Shown here: positions 56,301-59,300 of the stretch, piece after piece
How positions within the stretch are numbered: the first letter of the stretch is position 1
How the letters are laid out: each line of letters begins with the position of its first letter
Sequence record: PZ674595.1
Reading direction: 5' to 3' (one strand)
DNA from: a phage
Length of the DNA: 64,000 bases
Program-made: the position numbers

Positions 56301-59300
56301 GGGAAAAGGATCTGTTTATGGAAAATGTTCGACTTAAGTCAGGTATAGCAGGTCTGATACACCTCGGTATTCGATATGCGAATGTCGAAGTCATGAAAAT
56401 AGCTGGAGATGTCCAGCTTTCTACTCCCTGTACTGACAGCATCATAAACAGTATTGCATCAGGCGTTTTCACCAAAGAGGGTCAGCATTATGAGAACAGT
56501 AGAAGTTCGCGCTGAAGATGTAACCCCAGGTGATGTGGTCATAACATCTAAAGGCAAACGATGTGCGGTTAAATCTTTCTGGATGGAAGGTGACAAAGTG
56601 ACTCTGTTCGGTACGGATGGTTCCGAAACGGATTATGACTACGACGAATTGCTTGTTGTTGAGAGAGCTGCCTAATGACCACCTTAACCAAAGAACAGTT
56701 AATCTCCCATGAACGCGAAAGCGTTAGTTATCTGGAAGACTTGAAAGGACGTGTTAGTAAAGAAGGTGCGGACTGCAAAGTTGTTATTGAGATGGTTGCA
56801 CGAGATCTAAAACTGGCACGAATTGCACTGGCCTCGCTTGAGGCAAAACCAATAGGTGCATTCCACATTGCAGAACAGCAAGTTGACGGCACAAGTGACT
56901 ACCTCAAGGATGGAGAATGGCCTATTGATAATGGGACAATTGAAGTATACGCCGCCCCTCCAGTGCCAGTAGTACCGGAAGAAAAACCAATGCCTAACGC
57001 TCTAAGCATGCTTGAAAGAGAGATCACACAACTGATTGGTGATGCGCAGGAAGCCACTGTTACTGGCTATGAGTTAATCGCTGAAGCTTGGCGTTTGATG
57101 GATGGACAAGACCCTAAAACCAGCGATTGGCATAGCAAGGCTTCGAAGTATTTAAATTCCAATATTGTAGAAAAAGTTGATGATGACCGTATTGAGGCTG
57201 TTAAGGCCGTTTTGCGTAGACTGGCTGGCAACCATCCGGATTTTCCGGATAGTTCCCAACAATCGCCCAAGAAAAGCGTAAAAACCACTCTGGAAAGAGG
57301 CTATCTTGAGGCCGCATTAAAGATTAAGCCGGGCCATACGCTAGGCGTCATTGATGCCATGTTGGTTCATGAAATGGCGAAGGCTTTATTGCCGCTGGTG
57401 GCTGATAAAATTCCGAATAAGGCCGATATCTGATCACCATGCTAAAATCCCCTCAATTCACAGAGGGGATTTTTGTATATGTTGCATAGAGTTTTATGGA
57501 AAAGCGTTATTGTCGGCGCGATACTGGCTATATCTGGGTGTGCAATGGTGCAATACAACGACGGTGAAAAGGTAAGCATACAGTCAGATGGTTGGTATGG
57601 TCTGGATAGCCTGCAAAAAACCGCAGATAAAGCCTGTCAGCAATATGGGAAGTCTAAAGCAGTATATCAGCATAGCGCGAACGCTAACCCTAATCTTGCG
57701 CCCGGTTCGGGTGTTCAGAATACCATCTGGAAATGTGAGCCTTAAATATGAGCGACTGGAATATTGCAGCTAAAAGTCAGGAAGAACGGGATAAGGTTAA
57801 CGTTGATCTGGCTGCCAGCGGTGTGGCGTACAAAGAGCGATTGAACATACCTGTCATAGCTGAACAGGTAGCCCGCGAGCAACCAGAGAACCTGCGCACC
57901 TATTTCATGGAACGGTTACGGCACTACCGGCAGTTAAGCCTCCAGTTGCCAAAAGGGAGCCATCCGGTGTATCAGAACGAGGATGCACCAAGAAAATAAC
58001 GGCAAGATGGGGAAGACATTAAACATGCTTAACTATCACGACAACACGCGTTCTATGCAGACAATCCGCACCAATACAGCGGTGGTCGATAGCTTTCCTG
58101 TACATACTCAAGGCCGTGAAGATACCGTGGAAGTGCGACGCATGTTGTGTCGCCGGTCACCAGGCCACCAGCACTTCATCGTAACGTTTAAAAGCGATGT
58201 AGAGCGCGCCGAGAAAATCTCTAACTCCACATCTCTGGTTAGTCCGTTGGCGGAGGTTATTGTGCGCAACAATAAGGCGCGCTTTGTCCTTGAGGAGCAT
58301 CATTCTGATTTTAATGAAAAAATTAAGTCAAGCATTTTGCAATATATGAATGGCAAGTTCACGCCACCAATGTGATTAGCCCCCAGCGTGGCGCGCCTGC
58401 AAACCCCGCTTTCACAAACTATGCCTTTTCAATGTATACTGTATGAATAAACAGTATCATTGAGGTAAAACGCTATGGGCTTCCCTTCTCCTGCGGCGGA
58501 TTATGCAGAGAGCCGTATTTCTCTTGATCAGCAACTAATCAGACATCCTTCAGCGACCTACTTCATGCGGGCGGCAGACAGCCATCACCGTGAGGGAATA
58601 TTGCAAGGTGCTTTGCTGGTGGTTGATTCCTCACTTACCCCGGTTGATGGTTCTCTGCTTGTATGCGCTCTGGATGGGGAATATCGCGTAAAAAGATACC
58701 GGAAGTATCCACGTCAGCATCTGGAGGATTTAAGAACCGGTAAGAAGGAAGAATTGCCAAAGGATGACGATGGATGCACGGGCAGCAATGCCGTGTTTGG
58801 TGTGATCACTCACATTATCAACGACGCAAGAAGTGGCGAGTTTGATGATTGTCCCGTGATGTAGGAGAACTGATTAGGCGGTGCAATGCACCGCCTTTTT
58901 ATCACACTGCGCGGAATGCGATTTCGCCAGGTATTACTTCACCTTGCCAATACATTTGGGCAGCAACGCGATCTGCGAGGTCACGATAAATAGCCGTAAA
59001 TTCGCTATCTGGACGACTAATAACGGTTGGTGTTCCGTTATCCAGATCTTCACGAAGAGAGATATGAAGTGGCATTTGGCCTAACAACTGCGTGTTGTAT
59101 TTCTCGGCCAGTTTCTGTGCGCCACCGGTGCCAAAAATTGGCTCGTGATGACCGCAGTTACTGCAAATATGCACACTCATGTTTTCGACGATACCCAGTA
59201 CCGGCACTTCGACTTTTTCGAACATCACAATGCCTTTCTTCGCATCGATCAGCGCGATGTCTTGCGGCGTAGTTACCACAACCGCACCAGTTACAGGAAT

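Follow-up and report, generated by a model that had tools for sequence, protein, structure and literature searches.

We asked whether a stretch of phage DNA (sequence record PZ674595.1; 64,000 nucleotides, hereafter the window) encodes UmuD' directly in its processed form, places it under SOS control and does so in the absence of umuC, and what such a gene would do for the element that carries it. The gene in question, humD, very probably encodes a UmuD' equivalent, stands alone under LexA repression on a Cyrano/SSU5-like phage-plasmid and works by the mechanism published for HumD of phage P1. A first-pass annotation had placed the feature at 58411-58864. Its end at 58864 was correct; its start was not, as the open reading frame (ORF) begins at 58475, and 58411 belongs to the -35 hexamer of a promoter-like site. 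The locus consisted of the following features.

58475..58864 including the stop codon, plus strand: humD, 129 residues, HumD-family protein (UmuD' equivalent)
58411..58440, plus strand: sigma-70 promoter-like site, with -35 TTCACA (58411-58416), an 18-nt spacer and -10 TATACT (58435-58440); 10/12 match to consensus
58437..58456, plus strand: predicted LexA (SOS) box TACTGTATGAATAAACAGTA, sharing 4 bases with the -10 hexamer
58462..58465, plus strand: Shine-Dalgarno-like GAGG, 9 nt 5' of the humD ATG and kept in P1
58876..58896, plus strand: intrinsic-terminator-like hairpin (consensus scan) of 9 bp with 7 G-C pairs, then TTTTAT, between humD and the convergent apbC

humD was the sole sizeable ORF of the interval, and its product opened MGFPSPAADYAESRISLDQQ, giving M-GFPSPAADY as the N-terminus. 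When the product was compared by phmmer with the chains of the Protein Data Bank (PDB), Gly2 paired with Gly25 of UmuD, the first residue of UmuD' (8gmt_B), and residues 2-118 matched residues 1-114 of UmuD' (1umu_A, E=5.9e-23), with 1i4v also among the best structures. The same boundary was found by tblastn with E. coli UmuD, of which residues 25-139 only were matched, to 58478..58831 at 42.9% identity. The claim of the first-pass annotation that the ORF starts at the residues following the self-cleavage site of UmuD thus held. Two in-frame TAA codons were located 5' of the humD ATG, at 58466-58468 (9 nt) and 58448-58450 (27 nt), and therefore a longer product with an N-terminal arm is impossible. 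Furthermore, tblastn with UmuD revealed no peptide resembling its 24-residue arm in any frame near humD, and these two results together excluded both an in-frame start further 5' and an arm displaced by a frameshift. Alignment with UmuD and P1 HumD, the check proposed at the outset, hence showed UmuD-family homology with no upstream start in frame. With both the arm and the Cys/Ala-Gly self-cleavage site of UmuD absent, the product would correspond to activated UmuD' with no need for cleavage, as had been suggested.

A survey of 67 representatives, 68-92% identical to window HumD, was used to establish how far this start is shared. All 67 began MGF and 66 began MGFPSP, the lone exception having a P-to-Q change at position 4. 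The few database HumD entries with longer N-termini aligned from this Met only, which suggests that their starts were miscalled.

The canonical LexA box claimed to overlap the promoter was likewise borne out by the sequence. TACTGTATGAATAAACAGTA matched the LexA consensus TACTGTATATATATACAGTA at 17/20 positions, all three differences falling in the central AT-rich spacer. No other site in the window differed from TACTGTATATATATACAGTA at three positions or fewer, and none of 100 dinucleotide-preserving shuffles yielded such a site. The looser pattern CTGT-N8-ACAG occurred twice in the window against 0.8 expected and was not significant alone. The same was true of the promoter-like sites in the humD region, of which a consensus scan found 2 against 1.4 expected in shuffles; the site at 58411..58440 gains support, however, from its position directly 5' of the LexA box. 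The GenBank record of P1 annotates a LexA site 19 nt 5' of humD (AF234172 87545-87564), and the box, Shine-Dalgarno sequence and ATG of window humD aligned base for base with those of P1. CTGT-N8-ACAG boxes were also present directly 5' of the homologs in P1, N15 and BTP1 and 5' of a two-gene operon in HK140, and a box with one mismatch was found at a like position 5' of the homolog in Aeromonas phage pAEv1818. N15 gp26 has an annotated terminator at a position matching the hairpin at 58876..58896.

Curated profiles assigned the product to the same family. NCBIfam NF051876 (equivalog, "HumD family translesion DNA polymerase") matched residues 1-129 over its 129 positions with 220 bits, the curated cut-off being 120 bits. 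In contrast, NF007621 (UmuD, the autoproteolytic subunit of Pol V) scored 87.2 bits, below its cut-off of 110, and TIGR00498 (LexA) only 27.8 bits against 110.95, through the C-terminal domain alone; the layout of LexA and CI-type repressors, an N-terminal DNA-binding domain with a cleavable linker, was not found in this protein of 129 residues. Pfam Peptidase_S24 (PF00717) matched residues 1-80 with 38.2 bits (gathering threshold 23.3), and PHROG 811, 'UmuD-like', matched at 5.6e-54. Between the window and P1, humD showed a synonymous divergence (dS) of 0.68, a nonsynonymous divergence (dN) of 0.042 and a dN/dS of 0.06, values indicative of strong purifying selection.

The absence of a umuC partner, the remaining structural claim, was examined by scanning the window ORFs of at least 300 residues against Pfam, the remainder being identified through the genes annotated in pTHO-010-2, a complete plasmid of 113 kb. 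No IMS/UmuC domain was present among these ORFs. The Pfam domains found comprised helicase, primase, ligase, transposase, beta-lactamase, integrase, AAA ATPases, a gp32-like single-stranded DNA-binding protein (SSB), flap exonuclease, RecA, RepA, phosphoesterase, SbcC-like, NrdB, ThyA and DUF4942; some ORFs had none, and others were identified by the pTHO-010-2 annotation as CobT-related, DnaE, NrdA, ApbC and MetG. A six-frame tblastn search of the window with UmuC, using an approximate query sequence, gave a best E value of 5, so that neither the ORF scan nor tblastn found a umuC partner. No umuC is annotated anywhere in pTHO-010-2. 3' of humD the terminator-like hairpin is followed by the convergent apbC, leaving no umuC operon. 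Nor was umuC a neighbour of the homologs in P1, N15, HK140, BTP1, pAEv1818 and the Citrobacter and Enterobacter prophages, which occupy prophage edges and adjoin tail-fibre, gtr, integrase or dinI genes. The pre-processed, SOS-controlled and umuC-less state is, by these comparisons, a trait of the HumD family. As far as sequence can tell, window HumD displays every defining feature of that family, and fails those of a cleavable UmuD (arm, cleavage site, umuC operon and curated score). humD is thus an already known gene, and RefSeq already names this very sequence.

The statement that the Ser/Lys dyad is retained was literally correct, in that Ser36 and Lys73 align with Ser60 and Lys97 of UmuD; it was, however, uninformative. 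The GDSM motif of UmuD is lost and reads A-DSH in the window, and the nucleophile position of the 67 representatives was occupied by Thr (33), Ser (32) or Ala (2), with the preceding residue varying freely. Lys73 was invariant (67/67). The pAEv1818 homolog had Ala and Arg at the two positions. The protease site of HumD is probably vestigial on this pattern, which is expected once self-cleavage has been abandoned, and for that reason the retained Ser36 is no evidence of protease activity.

The proposed match to P1 HumD held for the gene and failed for its carrier. Window HumD was 91.5% identical to P1 HumD (AAQ14073) and 92.2% identical to that of P7 (tblastn). Like the window protein, P1 HumD has 129 residues, an MGFPSPAADY start and the same C-terminal tail, and its gene has an orthologous LexA box and Shine-Dalgarno sequence, stands alone without umuC and lies downstream of a hot (DNA polymerase III theta) homolog. 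The surroundings differ. P1 is a myovirus, whereas the window derives from a Cyrano/SSU5-like siphovirus phage-plasmid; the divergent lxr of P1 is replaced by a same-strand ORF of 130 residues; and humD is followed by phd-doc in P1 and by apbC-metG in the window. Given a dS of 0.68 between the two humD genes, there was no recent transfer. In the P1 GenBank record humD carries the note 'functionally complements E. coli UmuD'', and P1 HumD is cited as a functional UmuD' homolog acting through UmuC in PMC7092418; PMC9603915 counts humD among the SOS genes that LexA regulates in P1-like phage-plasmids.

Comparison with the carrier's relatives identified the element, on nucleotide identity, as a Cyrano/SSU5-like phage-plasmid of E. 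coli. A 25-kb part of the window matched phage Cyrano at 98.5% identity (99% of the part's length) and Salmonella phage SSU5 at 79% (81% of its length). Cyrano itself belongs to the SSU5-like phage-plasmids and resides in E. coli LF82 (PMC9928086). DNA similarity to P1 was limited to two pieces, the hot homolog and humD. Plasmids of ~110 kb from numerous E. coli strains contained the humD locus at 100% identity; RefSeq labels it there either "S24 family peptidase" or "HumD family translesion DNA polymerase". The complete pTHO-010-2, a closely related plasmid, has terminase and the head and tail genes of a siphovirus, together with repA, parB, dnaE, nrdAB, thyA, dfrA51 and tRNAs.

Set against E. 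coli UmuD and UmuD' (1UMU, 1I4V, 8GMT), the humD product belongs to the same S24 fold family, has the N-terminus of cleaved UmuD', has Ser and Lys at the dyad positions and, like UmuD, is predicted to be LexA-repressed. Unlike UmuD, it has neither the 24-residue arm nor the Cys-Gly cleavage site, and therefore no RecA*-dependent activation step; it has no umuC operon partner; GDSM is changed to A-DSH; and it has gained an internal insertion and a conserved C-terminal extension of 10 residues. The plasmid operons mucAB, impCAB, rumAB and samAB encode a full-length, cleavable UmuD-like protein together with their own UmuC-like polymerase. They share with humD carriage on a mobile element, SOS regulation and promotion of translesion synthesis by a UmuD-family protein, but the window element supplies the activated accessory subunit only.

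Closer in kind are the homologs in N15 (gp26), phiKO2 (gp23), HK140, HK639 and the P22-like BTP1, which were 62-70% identical and had the same pre-processed start, with a LexA box 5' of the gene in N15, HK140 and BTP1 as in the window. They occupy moron-like positions at the edges of phage modules. In contrast to the window element, their carriers are integrative or linear-plasmid prophages, and several have Thr in place of the window's Ser at the nucleophile position. The pAEv1818 homolog was more distant (49% identity, tblastn).

Two arrangements among these homologs were observed in their own right. In HK140 (L007 1910..2890) and Citrobacter prophages (L010-L013 5439..6390) the humD homolog is grouped with an ORF of 80 residues in a two-gene unit, divergent from a dinI homolog, and in HK140 a LexA box lies between the unit and dinI. 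DinI is a modulator of RecA* co-protease activity, and the arrangement pairs a DinI homolog with a cleavage-independent UmuD'. In Salmonella phage BTP1 (L008 2501..2873) the homolog matched in two pieces and is unannotated on its own strand, an opposite-strand hypothetical protein being annotated over it; a perfect LexA box nevertheless lies 5'. This copy may be frameshifted or mis-annotated.

The anatomy of humD, its family membership, the conserved pre-processed start and LexA box, the purifying selection and the lack of umuC are all properties of the DNA described above. From the 91.5% identity to the tested P1 protein we infer binding, complementation and a benefit to the element, and we further infer LexA binding, removal of the initiator Met, dimerisation and partnership with host UmuC. 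In an undamaged cell host LexA would sit on the box over the -10 hexamer and keep humD off. Upon DNA damage, RecA* would promote self-cleavage of LexA and humD would be transcribed. Methionine aminopeptidase normally removes Met before Gly. The M-G-F-P-S-P product would accordingly be trimmed to a mature N-terminus, GFPSPAADY, the same as that of RecA*-cleaved UmuD', and translesion synthesis would be spared the slow, RecA*-dependent cleavage step that usually holds it back. The product would then be expected to dimerise and to bind host chromosomal UmuC and RecA filaments, as P1 HumD reportedly does, forming a Pol V-like error-prone translesion polymerase. The benefit to the element during SOS might be that damage is tolerated, or that its own or host DNA is mutagenised.

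Several points weigh against this mechanism. The complementation, dimerisation and UmuC- and RecA-binding data all come from P1 HumD, for which McLenigan et al. reportedly described these activities in 1999; the same study is said to have seen strong complementation only from a high-copy vector, native expression being poor. The humD promoter call is a consensus match only. The element has its own DnaE, theta homolog, DnaQ-like exonuclease and RecA homolog, so that partners other than those of the host are possible. In addition, the HumD family has a near-invariant C-terminal tail (R119, E122-F-D-D-C-P-V128) that is absent from UmuD', and HumD may therefore be doing something that UmuD' does not. 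An AlphaFold2 model built to place the tail was unusable, with a mean predicted local distance difference test score of 43.7, because the alignment of 67 sequences was too shallow, all being at least 68% identical to the query. That the family gave up the nucleophile, kept the Lys invariant and gained the acidic E-F-D-D-C-P-V tail, together with the theta, DnaE, DnaQ-like exonuclease and RecA genes of this element, is the ground for a wider reading, in which HumD is more than a copy of UmuD' and acts as an SOS factor retargeting the element's own replisome or RecA, or binding another partner through the tail. We regard this as unlikely.

A related proposal, that HumD, once induced by SOS, mainly modulates the Pol III core, whether the host's or the element's own DnaE, exonuclease and theta, and does not act via host UmuC, appears decidedly unlikely. 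It would account for the position of the theta (hot) homolog ~475 bp 5' of humD, a pair that travels together in P1 and in the window element, for the DnaE, RNase_T/DnaQ-like exonuclease and other replisome parts that the element encodes, and perhaps for the otherwise unexplained family-specific tail. UmuD and UmuD' reportedly contact the alpha, epsilon and beta subunits of Pol III, as Sutton, Opperman and Walker are said to have described in 1999. However, most homologs belong to small prophages (lambdoid, P22-like or P2-like) with neither hot nor polymerase genes of their own, and the linkage of hot and humD is consequently no family trait, while P1 HumD itself is reported to act through UmuC (GenBank note; PMC7092418).

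Very improbable, in our judgement, is a decoy function, in which an S24 domain lacking the substrate arm would be induced by SOS to bind RecA* filaments or to form heterodimers with host UmuD, so that the RecA*-dependent cleavage of phage repressors, LexA or UmuD would be weakened or shifted in time. A nucleophile that varies while the fold is conserved fits a binding-only role, and yet cleaved UmuD' has no need of catalytic residues either, so that loss of the Ser is equally expected of a UmuD' surrogate. Binding of P1 HumD to RecA filaments, reportedly seen by McLenigan in 1999, would suit a decoy, as would the adjoining dinI of HK140 and the Citrobacter prophages; dinI is not adjacent to humD in the window, though, and direct evidence for a decoy role is lacking. 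We give next to no credence to humD being a functionless remnant of a umuDC operon, cut at both ends by recombination. Such decay would explain the missing arm and umuC and the mosaic junction with a chromosome-like apbC-metG block 38 bp past the stop codon, but it was refuted by a dN/dS of 0.06 at a dS of 0.68 and by the conservation data, namely MGFPSP in 66 of 67 diverged representatives, and a Shine-Dalgarno sequence, promoter-like site, LexA box and terminator of its own conserved across phage lineages in a curated equivalog family. The stand-alone, LexA-repressed UmuD' equivalent remains our preferred explanation.

A post-cleavage-form protein under a LexA box is a real and subtle feature that could be recognised from raw sequence. 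It adds little new biology, as the characterisation of humD goes back to 1999, NCBI maintains a curated family for it, and numerous E. coli plasmid records already annotate this very sequence. Three aspects are mildly new: the hot/humD pair is common to P1-like and SSU5-like phage-plasmids despite the dS of 0.68, the protease nucleophile of the family is not conserved, and a C-terminal tail absent from UmuD' is. SOS-controlled humD is, moreover, a conserved gene that occurs in P1-like as well as SSU5-like phage-plasmids, two lineages that are unrelated, and in many integrative prophages. Locus-related DNA was found in 722 of 5426 complete E. coli genomes, mostly on plasmids (652 places, against 113 on chromosomes), and on this basis cleavage-independent activation of host Pol V by phage genes may often contribute to SOS mutagenesis in clinical E. 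coli, also from elements that bear resistance genes.

Immediately upstream of humD are the two features that correspond to hot and to the position of lxr in P1.

57748..57999, plus strand: hot-like DNA polymerase III theta homolog (NCBIfam PRK10969, 104.7 bits against 97; PHROG 1105)
57983..58375, plus strand: ORF of 130 residues in place of P1 lxr (PHROG 2594, function unknown; no Pfam or NCBIfam match)

The second of these is in the reading frame of humD, with stops between the two, and on the strand opposite to that of the LexA-regulated lxr of P1.

Downstream, apbC (mrp; 58902..60002, minus strand) and metG (about 60160..62193, plus strand) lie inside the phage-plasmid directly after humD. 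The block begins 38 bp past the humD stop codon, is divergent as on the E. coli chromosome, and is about 90% identical to the chromosomal copies. Among complete E. coli genomes it turned up at 223 places on plasmids, and it is also present in phage Cyrano. A chromosomal prophage beside mrp/metG was rejected as the source of the window, since apbC-metG belong to the plasmid and are only ~90% identical to the chromosomal copies. With metG the phage-plasmid carries a second methionyl-tRNA synthetase.

The element encodes much of its own replisome: a DnaB-like helicase, primase, ATP-dependent ligase, DnaE, gp32-like SSB, a 5'-3' exonuclease, the RNase_T/DnaQ-like 3'-5' exonuclease and the theta (Hot) homolog. 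The regions concerned, together with the RecA homolog, are as follows.

82..5076: replisome genes
17882..21400: DnaE
23902..25935: replisome genes
45629..46186: RNase_T/DnaQ-like exonuclease
57748..57999: theta homolog
26204..27277, plus strand: RecA homolog (Pfam RecA, 2.2e-42)

In pTHO-010-2 the place of the RecA homolog is taken by a 2340-bp coding sequence with the annotation LAGLIDADG homing endonuclease; it may be the same gene with an intein.

Elsewhere in the window a further set of features was noted.

6001..7263, plus strand: DDE transposase of 420 residues (Pfam DDE_Tnp_1_4), fitting an ISEcp1/IS1380-type element
7459..8391, plus strand: class A beta-lactamase ORF, following the transposase
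10321..11583, minus strand: ORF of 420 residues with no Pfam domain (PHROG 18168, function unknown; near full-length, 2.2e-217)
12169..12188: second LexA-like box TACTGTTTACTTATACAGTG, CTGT-N8-ACAG, 16/20 to consensus

pTHO-010-2 has a fimbrial operon at about the position of the first two, and 6001..8391 therefore looks like an insertion carrying a resistance gene. TACTGTTTACTTATACAGTG lies about 27 nt 5' of the ATG of a tyrosine recombinase gene (12215..13318, plus strand) and is kept in pTHO-010-2 (L003 18913-18928), and thus the recombinase of the element may also be under SOS control.

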